Below, piece by piece: positions 3,771 through 24,261 of a stretch of DNA of 64,000 nt. Under the pieces are notes generated by a model that saw only the letters and a list, made by a program, of their open reading frames with translations, made no database searches and was not told the DNA's origin. How positions within the stretch are numbered: the stretch's first letter is position 1; every line of letters starts with the position of its first letter. The stretch comes from Candidatus Poribacteria bacterium. Lineage in GTDB: Bacteria; Poribacteria; WGA-4E; WGA-3G. The stretch lies in assembly GCA_965198235.1 (NCBI GenBank), contig OZ240248.1:1568001-1632000 (forward strand), read 5' to 3'. A program made the translations under genes and the position numbers.

Positions 3771-4800
3771 ATCCGCATTTTTCGTATCGTTCTATTGTGT
3801 TCTGAAAGCGTCTTTGAAAAGTGGTGCTTTCCCTCGCCTATCGCCACGAAGTAGAGATAGTCTGTTTTTTCGGGCCGCAGTGCAGCTATAATTGAATCAA
3901 TACCTGGATTCGCAATGGGACCAGGGGGTAAACCCTTGTGTTTATACGTATTGTAAGGCGAATCAACCTGTAGATCGGCTTTCGTCAAGGGTCTTTCTGG
4001 GTTCCCTAAGGCGTAAAGTACCGTTGGATCTGCCTGAAGCTTCCACTTTCGTGTAAGCCGGTTATGGAAGACACTTGAAATACGGGGGCGTTCCAGTCCA
4101 GATTGTGCTTCTTTTTCGATGACAGAAGCGAGCGTTACGATTTCGTGACGGGTACGCCCTAAATTTTGCGCCTCCTCGTCAAATTTTTCCGTCCATTGCT
4201 GTTTAAATTCATCAAGCATCATCTCAACAACTTTTTCAGTTGTTGTGCCTTTTGCGAATTTGTACGTATTCGGAAAAAGGTAGCCCTCTACAGTTTTGTC
4301 TGCAAGCCCGTACCGCTTCAACAAACGCGAGGATTCGGAGGCTTTCCGAAATGCCTCGGCTGTGCCAAAGCCGCTCATTTCCCAAAGTTCAGCAATAGCA
4401 GATGTCGTTAAACCCTCTGGCACTGTCCAGCTAACCAGCGTAACCTGCCCCTTTTCAAATTCATTGAGTAGATCCCACAACGCCATGTTCCGCCGTAACA
4501 TATAAGTTTCAGCTTGTAGGTGTCTACCAGTCCCTCTATATCGGACAACTATACGAAAGGCGTATTCGCTGCGTATTAGTTTTTGTTCAACCAATCGCTT
4601 TGCTATTGCCCGCGAACTACTCCCTACTGGTACGTCGAAATTAACAACCTCTTCTGACGATGTGGGTGGTAGCGTCAGGGATACCCCAATCAACAAAACA
4701 ATGAGGCAGAGAGCACCAAGACAGCAGAGCGTCAGTATGCCTATCTTAATTTTCGTGTTTTCGAGAGAGAAGTATCTTGACGACTTGGTGATTGGACAGA
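3758..4800 (-). CDS. mltG: Endolytic transglycosylase MltG (start uncertain)
   Basis: EGYLFPNTY, LASVIEKE, LQADPT, SPYNTY and GLPPGPI motifs; the TM helix lies upstream of the TTG at 4696. Confidence 0.88.
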
Positions 4801-14640: not shown

Positions 14641-16008
14641 ATGGCAGTTGAATTAAGAATGCTTCAGATGGATCAGACAATGACCAAGGGGAAAATCGGA
14701 AAATGGCTGGTTAAGGAGGGCGATACCGTCACACAAGGACAACCTTTGTTAGAGATTGAAACCGATAAGGTCGTCCATGAACAGGAATCCCCCACTGATG
14801 GTGTTATCGCGCAATTGTTTGCTGAGGAGGGTGCCAATGTTCCTGTCAATGCTCTGTTAGCGATTATCGGGGCACCCGGAGAGGAAGTGGCACGCGTTGA
14901 AGTGGACACGGGGACAGTTGAAGTGGACACCACGCCGGAACCACAAGCGTCAGTGCAACCTGCACAACCGAAGGCAACGCCACCGACTGTGACCGTTGCA
15001 CCAAAAGCCTCGCCAGCGGCACGCCAACTTGCCGAAAAACTCGCTATTGACTTGACCGAGGTCAAAGCCTCTGGACCTGGGGGACGTATCCTTGAAAGCG
15101 ATGTCCAGCGATATATTGATTTGAGGGGACCGGCTCCAATTGAAGAAACGACACGACTTAGGGCATCACCGCTTGCCCGGCGATTGGCGAAGGAGCACGG
15201 AGTTGACCTGATTTCAATTGTCGGTTCAGGACCCGATGGCAGAATTGTCCGTGACGATGTGTTACAAGCGAGCGCAGCCGCCGCTGAAGCCCCCGTTATA
15301 GAGACACCTGTTCTCCAACAAGCGACAGAAGTTATTCCTATGGGTGGCATCCGTGAAATTATCGCAGAGCGGATGACCATGAGCCTTCAAACTAACGCCA
15401 GCGTCACACTCCACACAGAGGTTGACGCAACGGCTTTCGTCGAACTACGTCGGATGCTCAACGATAAACTGCAGGCGAGAGAGGTGAGTCTCACCTACAC
15501 CGACCTGCTCGTTAAAGTCGTAGCAAACGCTTTGCGGGAATACCCTCGACTCAACGCAACACTCACGGATGAAGGGATTCATCTATTGCCGGAAATTAAC
15601 ATCGGTGTAGCCGTCGCACTGGACGATGGACTGGTGGTGCCAGTAATACGGAATGCGGACAAGGAGAGGTTATCGGAGATCTCTGATCAGGTAAGAGGTT
15701 TCGCAGAGCGGGCACGTAGTAATCAATTGACACCCGGTGAACTTCAAGGTGGCACCTTTACCATTACAAATCTCGGGAACTTCGGAATTGATGCTTTCAC
15801 GCCTATTATCAATCCACCGGAGAGTGCTATTCTTGGGGTGGGACGGATTCTGAAAAAGCCGGTTGTTCACGACGATGAGATTGTTGTCCGTAGCATGCTG
15901 ACCCTGAGTTTGACGTTTGACCATCGTGTGATAGACGGTGCGCCTGCAGCGCAGTTTCTACAAACGGTCTCCAGCTATATTCAAGATCCATATCTGTTGT
16001 TAGTGTAG
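14641..16008 (+). CDS. Dihydrolipoamide acyltransferase (E2)
   Basis: Lipoyl ETDK motif, two ASPxARxLA E3-binding domains, DHRVIDG. Confidence 0.93.
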   Translation: MAVELRMLQMDQTMTKGKIGKWLVKEGDTVTQGQPLLEIETDKVVHEQESPTDGVIAQLFAEEGANVPVNALLAIIGAPGEEVARVEVDTGTVEVDTTPEPQASVQPAQPKATPPTVTVAPKASPAARQLAEKLAIDLTEVKASGPGGRILESDVQRYIDLRGPAPIEETTRLRASPLARRLAKEHGVDLISIVGSGPDGRIVRDDVLQASAAAAEAPVIETPVLQQATEVIPMGGIREIIAERMTMSLQTNASVTLHTEVDATAFVELRRMLNDKLQAREVSLTYTDLLVKVVANALREYPRLNATLTDEGIHLLPEINIGVAVALDDGLVVPVIRNADKERLSEISDQVRGFAERARSNQLTPGELQGGTFTITNLGNFGIDAFTPIINPPESAILGVGRILKKPVVHDDEIVVRSMLTLSLTFDHRVIDGAPAAQFLQTVSSYIQDPYLLLV

Positions 16009-16114
16009 GGCTACCAATATTCTGTCTGTAGAGATTCAATTTCATCAAAGTGTGCGTCTCGTGTGACAAGAATCAAATCGTGTTGCATGGCAAGTGCCGC
16101 AATTCAAATATCAT

Positions 16115-17380
16115 CAAAACCTTTGGGCTGGAAACCCCACACTTTAGTGTGGGGAGGAAAGCCCCCTCCTATAATTAAAGTTCAGACGCGTAAGCACCCT
16201 AAAATCAGATTCTTGCGCACTTTGAGTGAGGCGTTGGTTTCCTTCCAAAGAATACAGAGAAATACCGGTTTTCCCAAACCCGCTAATACGGGTCAGCCCA
16301 TGCTTGACATGCTTGACGAGTGTATTCTTTACCAATCTGTTCCAAGTCGTGCCACCATAGCGGGGGCGTTTACCGCCTTTTTGAGGATTTTGCCGGTGCA
16401 GTTCTCGCCTGATAATAGGGATAGGGGAGATACAGAAAACATCTCTATTATCAACCCTATCTTTGCCGCCTATTCTATGATATACCAAGCACCAACTATC
16501 TACACAATGCGCTTCAAACGTCTCCGCAAGTTTTTTAGAAGACTTCTTCAAACCCAACCTATCACGAATCTCTTTCGTCTCCCACCCTTGGAGTGTCAAT
16601 AACTCCCACCGCTTCTGAATTTCAGTGTAGAACCATGCTTTGCCAACTTCGAGCGGACTAAAAGACGTATTCCACTTTTTCGCATGCTTTATCGTCCTCG
16701 CTTTTATGTTCTCAACACAAACATGACGGATAGGGAACAACCCTGATAACCAGTCTAATATCCGAAGTTTCCACTCCCAACGGGCGCGCGTGCCTGCGGG
16801 GATACGTGCTTGATTTGCCAGACGATTCATGCGGTTTTTGCGATTCGGACATTTCCGAGAACGCCTCCCTCTGCGCAACTCACGACGCTTTTCAACTTTC
16901 TTACCCACCTGGGTGTGTGCGTCTGCCTGCACATTCAAATACGTATGTGACTTGCTTTTCACGGTAAAGCCTTCTTTCTTGCTACCGGGGTCTACCCCTA
17001 CAGCGATCTCTTGTGTTTTTCTCTCAGAAGGCTCTTTGTTGAGACGGATACAATAAATACCATTATCCCAGTAGGGGGTTGCCTCGTCTCGCTTTATCAA
17101 CTTGCGCGCACGGGCGGAATGCATGGGCATGAGTATTTGACCGTCTTTTGCTTTTACAGGAACAAACATAAGTTTCTAATTCTCTTACAAAAGTAAGGTG
17201 TGTATTGCCCCTTCCAGATCACATATCCAAGGGGAATCAGACGAGGGGAGTATCCAAAACATTGTACTGGCTGCCACGCCGAGATATGCGATATATTACT
17301 GTAGACAACGGTTTAACTTATGGAGAGGTGCTTGGCAGGCACTTCGCAGAAGCCTCACGCTTTAGCGTGAGGTAGTTGAC
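16115..17380 (-). mobile_element. IS200/IS605-superfamily non-autonomous IsrB element
   Basis: Begins GTCAACTACC; subterminal hairpins CCTCACGC-TTTA-GCGTGAGG (17353-17372) and CCCCACAC-TTTA-GTGTGGGG (16135-16154); no target duplication; removal restores vapC. Confidence 0.88.
16144..17169 (-). CDS. isrB: IsrB (RRXRR, HNH-less IscB relative), predicted RNA-guided nickase
   Basis: PLMP-like ILMP, RuvC-I GVDPG, Arg-rich bridge helix RRELRRGRRSRK, RuvC-II VENI, RuvC-III HCVD; no HNH; 341 aa. Confidence 0.85.
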   Translation of the reverse strand: MFVPVKAKDGQILMPMHSARARKLIKRDEATPYWDNGIYCIRLNKEPSERKTQEIAVGVDPGSKKEGFTVKSKSHTYLNVQADAHTQVGKKVEKRRELRRGRRSRKCPNRKNRMNRLANQARIPAGTRARWEWKLRILDWLSGLFPIRHVCVENIKARTIKHAKKWNTSFSPLEVGKAWFYTEIQKRWELLTLQGWETKEIRDRLGLKKSSKKLAETFEAHCVDSWCLVYHRIGGKDRVDNRDVFCISPIPIIRRELHRQNPQKGGKRPRYGGTTWNRLVKNTLVKHVKHGLTRISGFGKTGISLYSLEGNQRLTQSAQESDFRVLTRLNFNYRRGLSSPH

Positions 17381-17400
17381 TGTCTGGAATAAGATTTCCT
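17175..17400 (-). ncRNA. Predicted omegaRNA (5' guide from the flank plus ~200-nt scaffold)
   Basis: Non-coding stretch between the element end (GTCAAC at 17380) and the isrB start, the established position in IscB/IsrB loci; ends inferred. Confidence 0.7.
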
Positions 17401-17578
17401 TTCTGCCGTAATTGATCTTTGATGATTCCAAACCACTGTGACGTTTCTAAGTCGCAAGAAAAGAGTGGGAATCTCTGCGTCTGCAGCCAAGAACATTTTA
17501 TCGGTATTTTCCACTTTTTCTTGAATTACTTTGTCCGCGGCAAACATCCCGATAATGATATTCGTGTCTAAAAGGTAC

Positions 17579-17809
17579 TTACCATTCTGATTCATCAACC
17601 CGTCCGCAGTCCTCCTCAATTGCTTGTTTTATTTCCTCAAGGTCTTCGGGGGGGAACAGCCCGACAAATTTAAGCAGCTCCTTACCGGAGGTGCCTCTTA
17701 TCGGTTCGCCTAAAAAAGAGAGAACAGAATTTAAAATCTGTTTCTGTTGCACAGGCGTAAGTTTGTCTAACCGCTCCACAATCTCTTGGATAGTCGTTGA
17801 TTTTTCCAT
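17579..17809 (-). CDS. Putative antitoxin partner of vapC
   Basis: 76 aa acidic protein overlapping the vapC start; GGAGG RBS. Confidence 0.75.
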   Translation of the reverse strand: MEKSTTIQEIVERLDKLTPVQQKQILNSVLSFLGEPIRGTSGKELLKFVGLFPPEDLEEIKQAIEEDCGRVDESEW

Positions 17810-17895
17810 CGTTTTACCTCCTTTTTGCCTAAATCCAAAAGAATAATAGCCATTACTATTATACAATAGGAAAATGGTGATTTTCAACGTTAAAA

Positions 17896-20800
17896 CTACC
17901 GAATTCCAGTTTTCTCAAACATCAAATCCAAATACGATTTTTCATTGTTGAAAAGTTGACTGGTGGAACCGTCTTCTGTTTTTTCATGCCAGTTTAATCG
18001 GAAGATATTATATGCCAACATATTCTCTTCGACCCACTCAACGGATTGTCTGTTTCCTAATTTGGAACTATCGCGTAGCAGCAAAAACGAATTGAGATGG
18101 AATGTCCGACCCTGTTCAGCCTCTAACCGTTTTTCAAGAATAATAAGTGTTTTATCCTCAGATTTTCGAGCGAGTTTAACCTTTGGATGATTTTGGTAGT
18201 CAAGTGTCTCGTCGTCGATAATACCACGCTGCCCTTTCGGATCGATGAAGAGGATGTGGGTTACCGTTTGTTCTGTATCTACTATCCACAACACAAAATC
18301 GGGATAGTAACTGCCCGAATCATTTTCCAAATAGATACCAATCTTCTGCACATTCCGCATCAGATAGAACTCATATCGTTTATTCCTGCCGTAGGATCGC
18401 TTAATATAATTTGTCAAGTCTTCAACGAATTTTCTTTCACCTGCATTTAGTCTATCTGGTGAGACTTTGACTTCGTTTGGTTCGTTCTCTCTGATATCCT
18501 TCGGGTCTAATAGGAGTGGGTTGTAAATATGCCGATGATGTAGTTCTAAAAATAATTGCAATTCTCTCTGGATCTGTACTTCCGGGTTTTTACGTCGCCC
18601 CTTTGATATATCTCTTTCCTTTTCTGCTTCCTCAATTTTTGCAAGAAATTCTTCATATTCATCACGATCTTTAAATTCCTTTGTTACTGTGTATTCATAG
18701 ATGAAGTCATCCTGGTTCAAAGGTTCATAAATATAGTTAGCACGATTGATATGGGCGTTGATGCGATTTCGTAGTTTACCAGTGACATCAATTACAACTT
18801 GGCGATTGAGCCTATCTGTCCACGCGATTTTATTTTTGCCCGCTTTCCGGTAACGAATTCCCCCAACAAGTGCCAGAAAATCTGAAATAGCGGGTTCGCT
18901 GTTGCCCTCATGATAAAGTTGCAGATGATTTTTCTCCGCCTCGCGGCGGATGATAGTAGCAAGTCTTGCCCGGTTCAGATAACAAGAATATTCTTTGTTA
19001 TATTTCTGCAGATATTCGTAGATATTCGGTGCCTCCTTCTCTTTGTCTGTTCGGTAATCCAACATAATTTCTTGCCAATTGTTGATAACTCCATGTTTTT
19101 CAGTGTTATCTTCAAAATAGGTATAATTAATTGATTTGTCACGGCTGAACACCACACACTTGATTGAGTTATCGCTGCTACCGATTTGCTTAAAAATGGG
19201 CAATTTGCTCTTATATTCCTCGAAGTGAATGGTTGTACCATTATCCACTTTAAAAAAAGTTGAATTTACATTAATTTTAAAGGTGTGATAAAGCCGAATG
19301 CCGCCCATGTGGACTTCCTTAAGAAAATGTTCAAGGTAGCTTCGCTGTAAGCTGAAAACGGTCAGCGTTTCCAATCGTCGAATCTCACTTTCTCTATCTC
19401 TTTTACGTGGAAGTGGGTAGGGGTAGTCTGGATCTTGCTCAATATACCGACGTTTTCCATCGCCACCTTTTCCACCTAACCGAACGCCGCGTCCGAAGAT
19501 CTGTATGATCAAGTTGCCTTTAGAACTTCCCAAGTTAATCAAATCAATTACGGAGAGACGATAAGAATTCCATCCTTCCGCAAACTTACGACTTCCAATA
19601 AGTATGTTTATCGGGCTGGTTTCGTTGTCGAGGTTTTCAAAATGGAGGTTTGGATCGGCGATTGATTCAACGCGTGTTTCAATGCAGTCGTTTTCAATGC
19701 TGTTGTAAAAACTCGCAGCGTCCCCAATGTTGATCATTCCCCACTTTTCGCCATCTCCATAAGAGAGAAGCAATTCACTATTGTTGTCTGGATTGCGTGC
19801 AACGACTAAGCGCCCAATAATATCACTACCAAAAATGGATCTGAATTTTTGGCGTTCCGCCTCGCTCAGTGCCGCAAGGTAATTGAGAACTTTCTGGATG
19901 TCAGAGACTTCATCGTTATCGTTTTTGCCTTCGTCCTTCGGATTTTCGACTGTATGTCCCATAAATGCCATCAAGGGACGATGCACAGTTAGATCAATGT
20001 CTTGCGATTCGTCGTCACGAACTCTTTTGAATGTTTGTAACTTTTTCTCCATCACCCAGAAACACTCGTCTAAGTTGTCTTTAATTTCTTGGTCGGATTC
20101 AGTAGCCACTGCATCTGCAGCAATCGGTTTGAAATAATGGTCTTTACCGTACCCATCGCTATAGAAGCGAGCATAATCGTACCGGTAGATGATTGCGCTA
20201 TCATATTCGTCCGCCAGTTCTTTAGCGATGTTGTGGAAGGTGGCTGAATATTCAAATAGGAAGGAATTTCCCACGTTGAGACGGTTCCGAAGTTCTCTGA
20301 ATTTGCCAGATTGCTGGCTTGTTAAGCCGATGTGTGCTTCGTCTACTAAAATGAGTCGGCGAATCTCTCCTGCATCCGGTAAACGGAAATAGTCGTCCTC
20401 CTTCTGCAAAAGCCCCTGCGTAGTGTCAATTGTAAGTTCAATCCGATTGCTATAGGTTTTGTTGAGTTCACGGACGTATGGCTCTAACTCGCGCTCATGC
20501 TGCTTAATCAGGTTTGCCAAGGGGGTCGTTAAGAAGATTTGAAGACGAGCATTGTCTTTTTTACAAAAATGGTGTAGGTATTGGAGGATATTAAGATGCA
20601 TGATGTGGGTTTTCCCACTGCCTGTCGCCATCCAATACGCCAGCATCCGTTTGTCTTCTTGTTCACTGCTTGTGTCAAATCCTTCTGACTGTTGTCGATC
20701 GGCAAAAAAACATTCGGTGAAAAGTAGAGCCAACACCTGATAGTAACGGAGTTTAAAAGCCTGCCTTGTCAGATAATTGTAATCTTCTAAGAAATCCTGA

Positions 20801-20940
20801 ATTCGCTCTAACGATTCAACAGGCAGTTGCAACGCTTGTTCAGGGTCATACAACTGAATTATTTCCTTTATCCCGTCATTTCGGATGTCAATCCCATTTT
20901 CGGTTAGGATTTTTGTTTCGTAGTCTTGATAAAGTGCCAT
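17896..20940 (-). CDS. Type III-like restriction subunit (Res)
   Basis: MATGSGKT, DEAH, QIFGRGVR; C-terminal YPDF..IDPKG nuclease motif. Confidence 0.88.
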   Translation of the reverse strand: MALYQDYETKILTENGIDIRNDGIKEIIQLYDPEQALQLPVESLERIQDFLEDYNYLTRQAFKLRYYQVLALLFTECFFADRQQSEGFDTSSEQEDKRMLAYWMATGSGKTHIMHLNILQYLHHFCKKDNARLQIFLTTPLANLIKQHERELEPYVRELNKTYSNRIELTIDTTQGLLQKEDDYFRLPDAGEIRRLILVDEAHIGLTSQQSGKFRELRNRLNVGNSFLFEYSATFHNIAKELADEYDSAIIYRYDYARFYSDGYGKDHYFKPIAADAVATESDQEIKDNLDECFWVMEKKLQTFKRVRDDESQDIDLTVHRPLMAFMGHTVENPKDEGKNDNDEVSDIQKVLNYLAALSEAERQKFRSIFGSDIIGRLVVARNPDNNSELLLSYGDGEKWGMINIGDAASFYNSIENDCIETRVESIADPNLHFENLDNETSPINILIGSRKFAEGWNSYRLSVIDLINLGSSKGNLIIQIFGRGVRLGGKGGDGKRRYIEQDPDYPYPLPRKRDRESEIRRLETLTVFSLQRSYLEHFLKEVHMGGIRLYHTFKINVNSTFFKVDNGTTIHFEEYKSKLPIFKQIGSSDNSIKCVVFSRDKSINYTYFEDNTEKHGVINNWQEIMLDYRTDKEKEAPNIYEYLQKYNKEYSCYLNRARLATIIRREAEKNHLQLYHEGNSEPAISDFLALVGGIRYRKAGKNKIAWTDRLNRQVVIDVTGKLRNRINAHINRANYIYEPLNQDDFIYEYTVTKEFKDRDEYEEFLAKIEEAEKERDISKGRRKNPEVQIQRELQLFLELHHRHIYNPLLLDPKDIRENEPNEVKVSPDRLNAGERKFVEDLTNYIKRSYGRNKRYEFYLMRNVQKIGIYLENDSGSYYPDFVLWIVDTEQTVTHILFIDPKGQRGIIDDETLDYQNHPKVKLARKSEDKTLIILEKRLEAEQGRTFHLNSFLLLRDSSKLGNRQSVEWVEENMLAYNIFRLNWHEKTEDGSTSQLFNNEKSYLDLMFEKTGIR

Positions 20941-20997
20941 TAGTTTCTCTAAACATCTGTGGAAGTAATATGCATTTGTGTTCCTATTATTTTTTTG

Positions 20998-23900
20998 CTA
21001 CGCTTCAAGAGTGTCCCACACCGCTCCTGTGTCAAAATCCGATGTTGAGATGAGATGAATCTGTCGCAGCTCCGAATTCTCAAGCAATGCTTGCTGATGC
21101 ACATCACAGTTAACATCTAGCTGTGTGACACCCGCTAACTGTTCATCTGCGAGAATTTCCAATAACTGAGGCGTATCGTCCTCCTCGGTTACATTGCGGA
21201 ATACAACCAGTCGCGTACCACTTTGAACAACTCGGTATACCTGATCATTTAAATCAAACCGCAAACGACGCTGAACCGGGAGCCCTTTGAGATAGCAATA
21301 AGTTTCCAAGACATCTACGTAGTCTTCTCTGCTATCCTTACCATACGTAATCCGATTAGAGAAGGGGTCGCGCATATCCATCATCAGCCGAGTCTGCTGT
21401 TCCTCGGGCCGATAGAGATATTTGACGGGGAGTTCTGTTTTCGTATTATAATTTGGAGGTGATGTCGTGAGGTTGTTGAGGACATCCTCATACTGTTCCA
21501 ACTGTTGATATTTAACAATGCCGACGGTGCCATCAATTTTCTTTTTTGCGTCCGGTTTGCCATCTCTCCAATTTGCGGAGAACATGACGCGCCGGATCCG
21601 CTCCTTCAAGGTGCTATCAAAGTAGTCTCCGATCTCAACAAGGATAAATTTGCGGTTGCCGTTATCGATTTTGTTGAGGTTAAGGATGGCATGCCCCGTT
21701 GTGCCACTACCGGCAAAGAAGTCAAGCGTAATTCCTTTACCATCATTTGTAACTGCCCAAACGAACTTTTCATATAAGTCAATAGGATGAGAGTATGGGA
21801 AATTTAACCCTAATGCGTCCAATTGCATTTTGCCTCTTTCGCCTGAGGGCAAGACTGAGGATAACTCGCCGACCAGATAGTTTTTCAAATAAATTTTGAG
21901 TCGAGGTTGTTTGGTTTCATCGGTACCGAAAATAATGCGGCCTTCATCCAAAAATTTCTGCATGTTTTCTGGAGTTCTACTCCATCCAGTCGCTGGAACT
22001 GGACAAGATTTACGAGTGATTGGATGAATCAATGGTTCGTGGAATTTAGGGTTGGTCAGCAATGCCGGGGCTCCTATACTGACATCTGAAAAAACCTGTC
22101 CCGCATCGTCAATTTTTGAATAAGCCCGTTCTCCACCACTCAACTCAGGTTTGTTCGTAATCCAATTTCTAAATTCTTTGCGGCACTCCTCTGTGACACT
22201 GCTATACTGTTTTATTAATGAGGCAGCCTTTCTAAGAATCGCTTCACGGTTGGTTGGTATAGCTTTGAGTTTTACGGTTCCTTTAGAATAGCACACAACA
22301 TATTCATGTTGTGTGGCTATCGTATTTGTTCCGAAAACAGGGTTTCTTTTGTCCCAAACAATAGTCCCCTGATTTTTCATCTGCATGGTGCTGAATACTT
22401 GAAATAGGTTTTCATATTCGTTCTCGTCAATATGGCAAAGGATGCAGCTATCTGGTGCCATTAACTGTTCGGCGAGGGACAACCGGTTTTCCATCATCGT
22501 TAGCCAACTGGAATGCTGATAATTGTTTTTATAGAGGAAGCCGCTTGTGTTGGTGTTGTAAGGCGGATCAATGTGGACACACCTTATGGAGTTTCGGTAT
22601 TTTTCCATAAGTAGGTCCAACGCCTGAGAGTTTTCACTGTTGAGTAACACGCCATCAATTTGCGATTCTAAATCTTTGAATAGGGCAAGAATCTCATCAA
22701 CAAAACCTTCCTCAAAATGCTGTGTGTCCAATGGTAGTGTTGGATATAATCCTTCAAGCAACGGCAGTTGCTCTGTAATATCGATACCGAAGGTTTCACG
22801 CCAGTCGGCAAGTTGTGCCTCGTTTTCCAGAATCTGTGAGATGAGTGCTTCCCGTTGGACTGTGTCATCTTTTGTTGCCTCTGAAATCTTACCTACAGAG
22901 ATGAGATAGTCGGTAGAAACAACCTTTTTCTTCATCAAGAATAGCTGCTTCTGAAATGTCTCCACAGCAACAAGCAGTGCAATTACTTCGTCTGTAACGC
23001 TGCGGAATGCTGTTGCTATAGCGAATGCCGGGTTTTCAGAACTGAGATTCAAAAGCGTATCCAAATCGCTGAGGATGATGTTCTGGATATAGCGGCGTTG
23101 CTCGGTTTTCAGAAATTTATCCAAATCTTTATGGATAAAGTAGTCTGAATCCATGCCCACGAAGAAGGTGTTCAGGTTTTTGTCAAGGGTGTGGAACCGT
23201 TGCACTATAAGGCGTTTTTCTAATACTGCTTGCCGTTCTGTATTGTTTTTGCCGAGTCCTTTGAAATCGGGATGGCTTACCAATTTCCCCGCGTAACTTG
23301 ACAAGTCCAAGTGCAACGCGTTGATACCTTGCAATCTGCCGTTCTGCACCTTGTCGTAAGTGTTCGCAAGGTCCTTAAAGATGGGTTTGCCCTGTTCCTC
23401 CCCTTTCTTAGGACGTTCGTGGAGATAGATGTCTACATCATCCGTTTCACTGAATATCTGAGTGCACATCTCACGGTATATCTCAACTTTTGGCGTTGAG
23501 GTTTCTGCCAAGTGAAGGATAACGCGCCATGTCTGTTCGGTATCGTCGGGTTTGGGAGGATCAATCCTACCAAAGCGATAATGTTTGAAATCGTCACGGT
23601 TATTGTTTTGTGCAATACTGGAACTTGCTTCTCCCTCTAACCGATACTCAATCCGTTTGTCTTCAACTTCAAAAGCAACACTGTTGAACCCTGTCGCCGT
23701 TTTAACGTAGTAGCTATCGCGACATTTCCAGTGGAAAAGTGTATCTGTCCCGTTGTAGTCTGCCTCATCGGGGTAGTCCACCTTATAGAGTGCAGTACTC
23801 CTGTCATTATAGCCGAAGTCACCATCTCGGTAGTATCCTTCAAAAAAACTATGAACATGATTATAGACGCGGAAAGCGAGTTTGGATTTGAGTTCGTCCG

Positions 23901-24261
23901 GGTCCGTTTCCAATGGAGCGATAAGTTCTTCCTTATCTTCGGTCTGGAGAAAATCTATCAGTTGTTGAGAGTTCTCGGCGATGTTTTCAAGCCAATCTCT
24001 TTGTCTACGCCCGCCTTCCTCAGCGACGAATTCCCTAACCTTGGTGAGTTGGCTATCGTAGAGTGTCTTAGTGACTTCTACGAGTGCTTCATCTACTATA
24101 GTTGTTAACTTTTCGTCAATGAATTGATTAACCTCATCGCGCTTAATTTTGAGGATACGGAAGATACCGAAGTCGAGGTCGTTATGTGCGAAGTGAAACA
24201 TATCGCGAAGTTTCTCGCGGAGGGTGTTGAGTGCTTCGGTTGTTGAGTTTGATTCGGGCAT
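20998..24261 (-). CDS. Type III-like methyltransferase (Mod), 1087 aa
   Basis: IDPPYNT and DFFAGSGTT motifs; directly upstream of Res. Confidence 0.88.
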   Translation of the reverse strand: MPESNSTTEALNTLREKLRDMFHFAHNDLDFGIFRILKIKRDEVNQFIDEKLTTIVDEALVEVTKTLYDSQLTKVREFVAEEGGRRQRDWLENIAENSQQLIDFLQTEDKEELIAPLETDPDELKSKLAFRVYNHVHSFFEGYYRDGDFGYNDRSTALYKVDYPDEADYNGTDTLFHWKCRDSYYVKTATGFNSVAFEVEDKRIEYRLEGEASSSIAQNNNRDDFKHYRFGRIDPPKPDDTEQTWRVILHLAETSTPKVEIYREMCTQIFSETDDVDIYLHERPKKGEEQGKPIFKDLANTYDKVQNGRLQGINALHLDLSSYAGKLVSHPDFKGLGKNNTERQAVLEKRLIVQRFHTLDKNLNTFFVGMDSDYFIHKDLDKFLKTEQRRYIQNIILSDLDTLLNLSSENPAFAIATAFRSVTDEVIALLVAVETFQKQLFLMKKKVVSTDYLISVGKISEATKDDTVQREALISQILENEAQLADWRETFGIDITEQLPLLEGLYPTLPLDTQHFEEGFVDEILALFKDLESQIDGVLLNSENSQALDLLMEKYRNSIRCVHIDPPYNTNTSGFLYKNNYQHSSWLTMMENRLSLAEQLMAPDSCILCHIDENEYENLFQVFSTMQMKNQGTIVWDKRNPVFGTNTIATQHEYVVCYSKGTVKLKAIPTNREAILRKAASLIKQYSSVTEECRKEFRNWITNKPELSGGERAYSKIDDAGQVFSDVSIGAPALLTNPKFHEPLIHPITRKSCPVPATGWSRTPENMQKFLDEGRIIFGTDETKQPRLKIYLKNYLVGELSSVLPSGERGKMQLDALGLNFPYSHPIDLYEKFVWAVTNDGKGITLDFFAGSGTTGHAILNLNKIDNGNRKFILVEIGDYFDSTLKERIRRVMFSANWRDGKPDAKKKIDGTVGIVKYQQLEQYEDVLNNLTTSPPNYNTKTELPVKYLYRPEEQQTRLMMDMRDPFSNRITYGKDSREDYVDVLETYCYLKGLPVQRRLRFDLNDQVYRVVQSGTRLVVFRNVTEEDDTPQLLEILADEQLAGVTQLDVNCDVHQQALLENSELRQIHLISTSDFDTGAVWDTLEA

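Follow-up and report, generated by a model that had tools for sequence, protein, structure and literature searches.

An IsrB OMEGA element in a vapC remnant of a Poribacteria genome, with its candidate guide and target-adjacent motif

Results and Discussion

An IsrB element within vapC

We analyzed 64,000 nucleotides (nt) of a Candidatus Poribacteria bacterium genome (GenBank assembly GCA_965198235.1, contig OZ240248.1, positions 1,568,001 to 1,632,000 of the forward strand); this whole 64-kb stretch is referred to as the window, and positions are counted from its first base. On the minus strand, a remnant of vapC is interrupted by an insertion carrying an open reading frame (ORF) for an IsrB protein. 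An initial annotation had described the insertion as an intact element whose guide and target/transposon-adjacent motif (TAM) can be read from the insertion site. Judged from its sequence, 16115-17380 is a structurally complete IsrB OMEGA element, a member of a previously known class: its ends are common to relatives, its ORF is full length with the four RuvC residues present, and its RNA fold is kept. The features at the locus are as follows.

16115..17380, minus strand: whole element, IsrB/ISC1-type, non-autonomous IS200/IS605-type; 1266 bp, delimited by the limits of homology in 80 loci and by the rejoining of vapC
16144..17169, minus strand: isrB ORF, 341 amino acids (aa) plus stop; LMPM at 13-16, RuvC-I D60, RuvC-II E153, RuvC-III H221 and D224, no HNH
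17184..17380, minus strand: proposed omegaRNA scaffold, 197 nt, with a covarying fold in alignment A1
17381..17400, minus strand: putative guide-supplying flank, about 20 nt; vapC codons ...GNLIPD plus the first base of N98, adjoining the 5' side of the conserved scaffold
16111..16114, minus strand: candidate TAM, ATGA (TCAT on the + strand); vapC codons N98/D99, outside the element
16115..16134, no strand assigned: left-end linker, 20 nt; on the IsrB strand ...CCAAAGG TTTTG, family consensus CCGAAGA plus 3 to 6 nt
16135..16154, no strand assigned: left-end subterminal hairpin, overlapping the final isrB codons and stop, with compensatory changes in relatives
17381..17595, minus strand: 5' part of the vapC remnant; about 26 codons deleted internally, frameshift near 17481
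16011..16114, minus strand: 3' part of the vapC remnant; TGA at 16104-16106 where W101 is expected, weak PIN match

Excision of 16115-17380 (1266 nt, a multiple of 3) joins ...KGNLIPD on the minus strand directly to NDI-stop-IAALAMQHDLILVTRDAHFDEIESLQTEYW-stop, the reading after the junction being NDI-stop-IAAL.... A search with the 48-aa reading that precedes the junction, left unaltered, found 15 VapC homologues of 115 to 135 aa, and all five intact homologues that were fetched (131 to 135 aa) contain LIPDNDIWIAA. The IPD-ND junction proposed in the initial annotation is thus the one that restores the LIPD-NDIW motif of these homologues. The best of them, P0001 (131 aa, intact), is 100% identical to the window reading over the 33 in-frame residues before the junction. 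Moving both boundaries by a single base yields PDSDI or PDDDI, neither of which occurs in any of the five. The insertion point falls in vapC codon 98, and there is no target-site duplication at the junction.

The ends are also marked by comparison with relatives. The element with 100-nt flanks was searched by blastn against 80 related loci, the best 80 of 286, whose proteins are 68 to 84% identical to the window isrB product; 79 are titled Poribacteria and 1 "uncultured bacterium," and counts out of 81 below comprise these loci and the window copy. On the 5' side (IsrB strand), matches begin in many loci at query position 100/101, which is window 17380; on the 3' side, they stop at 1360 to 1378, where 1366 is window 16115. 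In the end listings, the flanks of the relatives outside both ends are unrelated to each other. The family 5' end has a conserved GTCA(A/G)(C/T)NAC, followed by a hairpin with compensatory stem substitutions, and the 3' end consists of a hairpin, a conserved CCGAAGA and 3 to 6 nt mostly ending in G, after which come ATGA and unrelated DNA. Differing ends or flanking motifs in other copies had been named in advance as an observation that would speak against this reading; the relatives instead have the same GTCA... start and, in most of them, the same ATGA past the 3' end. The median element length is 1263 nt, with 59 of 62 copies between 1253 and 1270 nt; the window copy has 1266.

On the + strand, 16115 is the left end and 17380 the right end, and isrB lies on the opposite strand. 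A matching pair of 8-bp hairpins had been described at the two ends. The pair is present, its members 90% identical to each other over 20 nt, but the length needed adjustment, the stems being 8 to 9 bp: the arms 16135-16143/16146-16154 on the left and 17353-17361/17364-17372 on the right are 9 nt each and 100% complementary, with a 2-nt spacer. The hairpins lie 20 nt from the left end and 8 nt from the right end. The arrangement is that of the IS200/IS605 family, with hairpins subterminal at both ends, neither terminal inverted repeats nor a target-site duplication, and insertion directly 3' of a fixed tetranucleotide, TCAT (top strand), at the left end.

The IsrB protein

Both sequence and fold identify the isrB product as IsrB, as the initial annotation had proposed. 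Pfam RRXRR (PF14239) covers residues 3-157 (E = 2.7e-30). In a phmmer search of all PDB sequences, the best match was 8DMB, the IsrB of Desulfovirgula thermocuniculi (DtIsrB), over residues 3-275 (E = 1.8e-33), and IscB chains matched at the N terminus only; the NCBIfam guided_IscB model likewise matched only the N-terminal half, at 83 bits versus a cutoff of 175. Searched with Foldseek, an AlphaFold model of the product again found 8DMB first (E = 9.2e-19, template-modeling scores 0.48/0.49, 28% identity), with IscBs next. The C-terminal region is less well defined: Foldseek aligns 352 columns to 8DMB, but the phmmer alignment ends at residue 275, and residues 240-272 and 330-341 have predicted local distance difference test (pLDDT) values below 50.

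The PLMP domain is represented by LMPM at 13-16, which aligns with the DtIsrB N terminus and in which L13, M14, and P15 are invariant in 46 sequences, the set used for protein conservation and as the AlphaFold input. The split RuvC domain is present as well. The phmmer alignment to 8DMB pairs the VDPG, the RuvC-II Glu (E-D), and the RuvC-III H..D, so that D60, E153, H221, and D224 align with the DtIsrB VDPG, ED, and H..D residues, which are taken as catalytic by comparison with Cas9 and IscB. All four are invariant in the 46 sequences and present in the window copy; the three RuvC motifs are intact as claimed, with the caveat that the residue after E153 is changed (D154N). A Pfam search with a limit of E ≤ 0.01 gave no HNH family. 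Between E153 and H221, where an HNH domain would be located, there are only 67 residues, and the product has 341 aa versus 441 to 496 aa for the PDB IscB chains matched, the TbaIscB chain (1068 aa) apart.

A covarying RNA upstream of isrB

Between the element's 5' end and isrB, 63 distinct copies (alignment A1) share a covarying structure that begins at element base 1 and stops just before the isrB ribosome-binding site. Its end at 17184 and the spacing of 202 to 214 nt between the 5' end and the isrB ATG in nearly all copies agree with the scaffold of about 200 nt given in the initial annotation. The helices in the window copy are listed below.

17374-17380/17304-17310, minus strand: S1, pairing the first 7 bases of the element
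17353-17372, minus strand: SL1, which is the right-end hairpin
17317-17352, minus strand: SL2, a bipartite stem-loop
17299-17301/17215-17217 and 17283-17292/17218-17227, minus strand: long-range stems, enclosing two stem-loops
17268-17281, minus strand: SL4
17237-17257, minus strand: SL5
17184-17197, minus strand: SL7, the last hairpin
17333-17336 with 17273-17276, minus strand: pseudoknot 1, SL2 loop with SL4 loop
17244-17248 with 17208-17212, minus strand: pseudoknot 2, SL5 loop with the strand before SL7

RNAalifold applied to A1 gave 34 pairs, 22 of them with compensatory changes, and a fuller structure of 60 pairs in 11 helices was composed by hand from the same alignment. In the latter, 93.0% of the cells are paired, versus 33 to 40% when the partners are slid by 1 to 3 columns; double-sided changes occur in 33 of the 60 pairs, and none of 500 shuffles reached any of five measures. 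The slid-partner control carries the covariation argument, since kin sequences can beat shuffles without structure. Covariation extends to the pseudoknots: columns 49/123 hold GC in 34 copies, AU in 24, GU in 4, and another combination in 1, and columns 152/186 hold AU in 40, UA in 15, and others in 8. The window copy retains 55 of the 60 pairs (family median 56, range 51 to 59), and nhmmer finds the scaffold at one locus only in the window.

In most copies, the 3' strand of the last hairpin (A1 columns 204-223; window 17184-17197) holds the GGAG that precedes the isrB start. Because of this location, folding of the RNA could mask isrB translation.

The structure resembles the omegaRNAs described by Hirano et al. 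(2022; PMC9581776). According to the text of that paper, DtIsrB has a 20-nt guide and a 262-nt scaffold with 12 helices and two pseudoknots; the core shared by six IsrB orthologues comprises S1-4 and SL1/2/4/5/7, with the peripheral SL3, SL6, and SL8 missing in some. The pseudoknots of "group A" join SL2 to SL4 and SL5 to the strand adjoining SL7; DtIsrB belongs to group B. In the window element, the core helices and two pseudoknots lie upstream of the ORF, as established by covariation on the 63 copies, and by analogy their order and the pseudoknot partners (SL2-SL4; SL5 with the SL7-adjacent strand) would place the RNA in group A with the core set only, the helix names being matched from the paper's text, not its figures. 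No equivalents of the SL3, SL6, and SL8 named there were found here, and the restriction to the core set accounts for the length of 197 nt. The element had been put forward as a compact nickase candidate. This stands in relation to the 262-nt scaffold of DtIsrB and in a relative sense only: some other orthologues also lack SL3, SL6, and SL8 according to the same text, and the window scaffold is probably not the smallest on record.

The region upstream of isrB could instead be a DNA end recognized by a transposase, or an mRNA leader regulating isrB, rather than a guide RNA. SL1 doubles as the hairpin that TnpA would be expected to recognize at the right DNA end, in most copies the isrB Shine-Dalgarno region falls partly within the last hairpin, and Rfam provides no match. 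However, covariation over 197 nt with 11 helices and two pseudoknots goes far beyond what a transposase end needs, and the structure starts at base 1 with helix order and pseudoknot partners as in the IsrB omegaRNAs of the cited text. We therefore regard a DNA end or leader as very improbable and treat the region as a putative omegaRNA scaffold.

Guide and TAM

The initial annotation took the guide from the vapC flank 17400-17381. This flank sits immediately 5' of the scaffold, and the corresponding upstream flanks of relatives are unrelated to one another; the length of 20 nt for the window element is borrowed from the description of DtIsrB in PMC9581776. The 20-mer at 17381-17400 has no other match with 4 or fewer mismatches in the window.

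The TAM had been read as ATGA at 16114-16111. Among the 81 copies, the motif past the far end is ATGA in 55, ATGG in 8, ATAG in 3, ATAA in 2, and ACGA in 3, and none was found in 10; boundaries were placed automatically and then corrected by eye from the end listings for L074, which became ATGA, and L077. As a control, the 12 nt preceding the 5' end contain ATGA in just 3 of 69 copies. In two of the three ATAG copies (L014 and L018) the 3' end is disrupted, and the ATAG read there does not count as a genuine TAM; in both, the sequence diverges inside the loop of the left-end hairpin. The annotation had also referred to NTGA/ATGA-type TAMs as published, and the text of PMC9581776 bears this out: it gives NTGA for DtIsrB, while its orthologues have NTG or NTGG, and the substrates tested included ATGA and ATGG. 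On this comparison, the guide and TAM readings are well supported.

Conservation alone cannot tell a terminus from a target motif, and ATGA, kept as it is beside the ends, could in principle be the last four bases of the element, in which case the reading of the empty site as guide plus TAM would be wrong. The host genes argue otherwise. Removal of 1270 nt breaks the vapC frame, whereas removal of 1266 nt gives LIPDNDIW as in 5/5 homologues; because rejoining restores both the frame and this motif, ATGA belongs to vapC and not to the element. In relatives, moreover, the ATG of the motif is a host start codon, for instance that of dnaN, where Pfam positions 1-120 fall on residues 1-120. That ATGA is part of the element is hardly credible, and the assignment of ATGA to the target is preferred.

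A proposed nicking cycle and the state of the window copy

Taken together, the locus is very probably explained by a non-autonomous IS200/IS605-family element that encodes IsrB (an HNH-less IscB, "ISC1"), is inserted in vapC codon 98, and would follow an omegaRNA-guided nicking cycle. Transcription from the host side, plausibly from the vapBC promoter, would produce an omegaRNA made of about 20 nt of vapC flank (17400-17381) and the scaffold. IsrB would bind this RNA and nick DNA in which the matching 20-mer is followed by ATGA, that is, the empty or excised site. A Y1 transposase (TnpA) supplied in trans would excise the element and insert it as single-stranded DNA beside TCAT (top strand), and a nick at the rejoined donor site could then lead to recombinational restoration of the element. 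We infer expression, nicking, and mobilization of the window element by analogy with systems that have been studied.

The closest such analogy is provided by the IscB/IsrB elements of Geobacillus stearothermophilus (Meers et al., 10.1101/2023.03.14.532601). As the text of that study describes IscB elements, the right end provides the scaffold, and both the guide and the required start of transcription are external to the element; TnpA and the nuclease use one TAM, located beside the left end, the nuclease targets the rejoined donor site, and a nearby tnpA is missing from most elements. The anatomy of the window element agrees with each of these points: on the + strand, TCAT comes before a left end with its hairpin 20 nt in, and the right-end hairpin is 8 nt in. 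Like those elements, it is non-autonomous, with a right-end scaffold, an outside guide, a left-end TAM that would be shared with TnpA, and co-orientation with upstream genes, and the rejoined donor would be its target. The Geobacillus elements differ, on the same text, in that they encode HNH-containing IscB double-strand cutters with an AT-rich TAM, whereas the window element encodes an HNH-less predicted nickase with ATGA; TnpA activity and element retention were demonstrated for them. From what the paper's text gives, DtIsrB has the same domain order as regards PLMP, split RuvC, and the lack of HNH, and its C-terminal TAM-interacting region has a putative counterpart here; it also shares the guide 5' of an element-encoded scaffold with two pseudoknots, and an NTGA-type TAM that covers ATGA; it is the best PDB match by sequence and fold, yet only about 28% identical in the Foldseek alignment.

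Transcription from the host side is compatible with the gene order. The genes upstream of the guide, namely the vapC remnant and a small ORF that belongs to no known family, are co-oriented with it, and one promoter-like site was noted:

17858..17887, minus strand: promoter-like site ahead of the small ORF preceding vapC; 11/12 consensus matches, by consensus only

This site could drive read-through into the guide and scaffold. The region has 4 promoter-like sites, a number not above that in shuffles (2.9 ± 1.9), and a consensus scan of 15950-18050 found no terminator-like site.

Several observations weigh against the account given here. The AlphaFold model is of moderate quality (pLDDT 67.2, predicted template-modeling score 0.53). 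The omegaRNA covariance-model search suggested by the initial annotation came out negative: Rfam gave no match to any omegaRNA family or to HEARO (RF02033), an RNA class historically tied to IscB genes and located, as here, upstream of the ORF, whether in the window and 20 related loci at gathering thresholds or, with the limit relaxed to E ≤ 10, in 16000-17600. The single-sequence fold of 17140-17400 is no better than that of shuffles (z = -0.42) and is uninformative. Neither a second copy of the element nor a stand-alone RNA was found in the 64-kb window by sequence comparison and nhmmer, and no Y1 transposase was found among the 54 window ORFs scanned. Finally, the window protein departs from the family at three positions conserved in at least 95% of sequences, D154N, A229V, and K319Q. 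The first (codon at 16708-16710, minus strand) directly follows the catalytic E153 and is D in 97% of 71 relatives; all three changes are private to the window copy, and a 94%-identical relative keeps the family residue at each. A separate Rfam match, to sot0042, was rejected as chance (12.9 bits versus a gathering score of 88).

Some of these points raise the question of whether the identification is right but the window copy is an immobile relic, without an active nickase or movement, in a decaying toxin-antitoxin locus. Besides the three substitutions and the lack of TnpA and of another copy in 64 kb, the nearest relatives among the searched genome contigs are only 83 to 84% identical in protein, and the host vapC has since acquired a deletion and a stop codon, for which reason the insertion is not very recent. 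However, the ORF is full length with all four RuvC residues, three deviations at conserved positions are near the family median of 2 (maximum 9), and the RNA retains 55 of 60 pairs, where the median is 56. D154 itself need not be essential, since in TbaIscB the residue after the catalytic Glu is not D either. We consider a relic unlikely, if well short of negligible, and favor a structurally complete element that may still be functional.

The decay of vapC is extensive. The deletion corresponds to P39-L64 of P0001 (about 26 codons) and brings with it the frameshift near 17481. vapC has thus been inactivated three times, by the IsrB element, by the frameshifting deletion of about 26 codons, and by the TGA that replaces W101, although it is otherwise nearly identical to P0001; owing to the deletion with its frameshift and to the TGA, it would be dead even apart from the insertion. 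Of its pieces, the 3' one gave a weak Pfam match to PIN (profile positions 96-118 of 120, E = 0.0023), and the other two had no Pfam match. Reading the TGA as Trp under another genetic code was rejected: the flanking genes are long open frames in table 11, and vapC is also frameshifted.

The family in Poribacteria

ORFs of 333 to 343 codons are kept in 76 of the 81 copies. In a single genome, OZ244616.1, eight copies are 97.2 to 99.8% identical and lie in unrelated flanks at unrelated sites, which argues for recent transposition of the family; such near-identical copies were seen for relatives and not for the window copy. A wider protein search returned 2948 clusters at E ≤ 1e-10 among 4171 candidates, those with names being "RRXRR domain-containing protein" or hypothetical. 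A full-text search found no literature linking Poribacteria with IscB or IsrB. Individual copies are irregular: in L013, about 90 additional nt separate the RNA from the ORF and the reading is broken, and in L049 an insert precedes the last 25 nt or so of the 3' end.

The window element thus offers a clean natural case in which the guide, TAM, and empty site of an IsrB can be read from the sequence, with 80 related copies behind it. It adds a large and apparently recently mobile IsrB family from genomes of sponge symbionts (Poribacteria), and it supplies a putative omegaRNA of 197 nt, backed by covariation and overlooked by the current Rfam model. To developers of tools, the element would offer a small nickase candidate with a simple ATGA TAM.

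Start-codon placement in relatives

Among the relatives, the motif past the far end is very often the start of a host gene. Distinct sites that combine an ATG-type motif with a known 5' boundary number 55, and at 32 of them the ATG of the motif opens an ORF of 60 codons or more; the junctions lie at about 2790 and about 4055 in loci L001-L080. In 22 of these 32, and hence 22 of the 55 sites, GGAG, GAGG, or AGGA occurs at -4 to -17 in the flank across the element. All ATGA/ATGG sites of these flanks give a background of 3.4% (130 of 3775), for a binomial p of about 3e-18 with sites assumed independent. Of the 32 ORFs, 26 contain Pfam domains (E ≤ 1e-6). In several the profile begins at residue 1, as for dnaN (L027, junction 4054) and GFO_IDH_MocA (L073, 4057); for PUA_2 (L069, 4059) it begins at residue 2. 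These ATGs are therefore real start codons. Host genes at such sites include dnaN, TonB-dependent receptors, and ATP sulfurylase. The relatives thus very often separate a co-oriented gene's start codon from a Shine-Dalgarno-like motif; the window copy does not.

It is conceivable, and we propose it only tentatively, that the Poribacteria IsrB lineage is specialized to start codons, its ATGA/ATGG TAM being the host ATG plus a purine. If so, an element between a Shine-Dalgarno motif and a start codon would be supplied with both transcription and guide by the host promoter and 5' untranslated region. The host gene would then be translated from the conserved 3' end of the element, or by re-initiation about 30 nt past the isrB stop; the CCGAAGA-type 3' end may stand in for that gene's own ribosome-binding site. 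Such a lineage, its nickase 341 aa long and its omegaRNA limited to a 197-nt core, would be a distinct natural IsrB system, unusually small and with a niche that can be defined. The start-codon placement of the relatives is of interest to transposon biology.

In L026, the last 8 nt of the element (about 4049-4056), directly before ATGA, are AAGGAGAT, and the same 8-mer ends the 5' flank (about 2785-2792).

Directly upstream of the vapBC remnant in the window, 17896-24261 (minus strand) holds two ORFs, one of 1014 aa resembling ResIII/DEAD helicases and one of 1087 aa containing an N6_N4 DNA methylase domain, a setting that looks like a restriction-modification or defense neighborhood.

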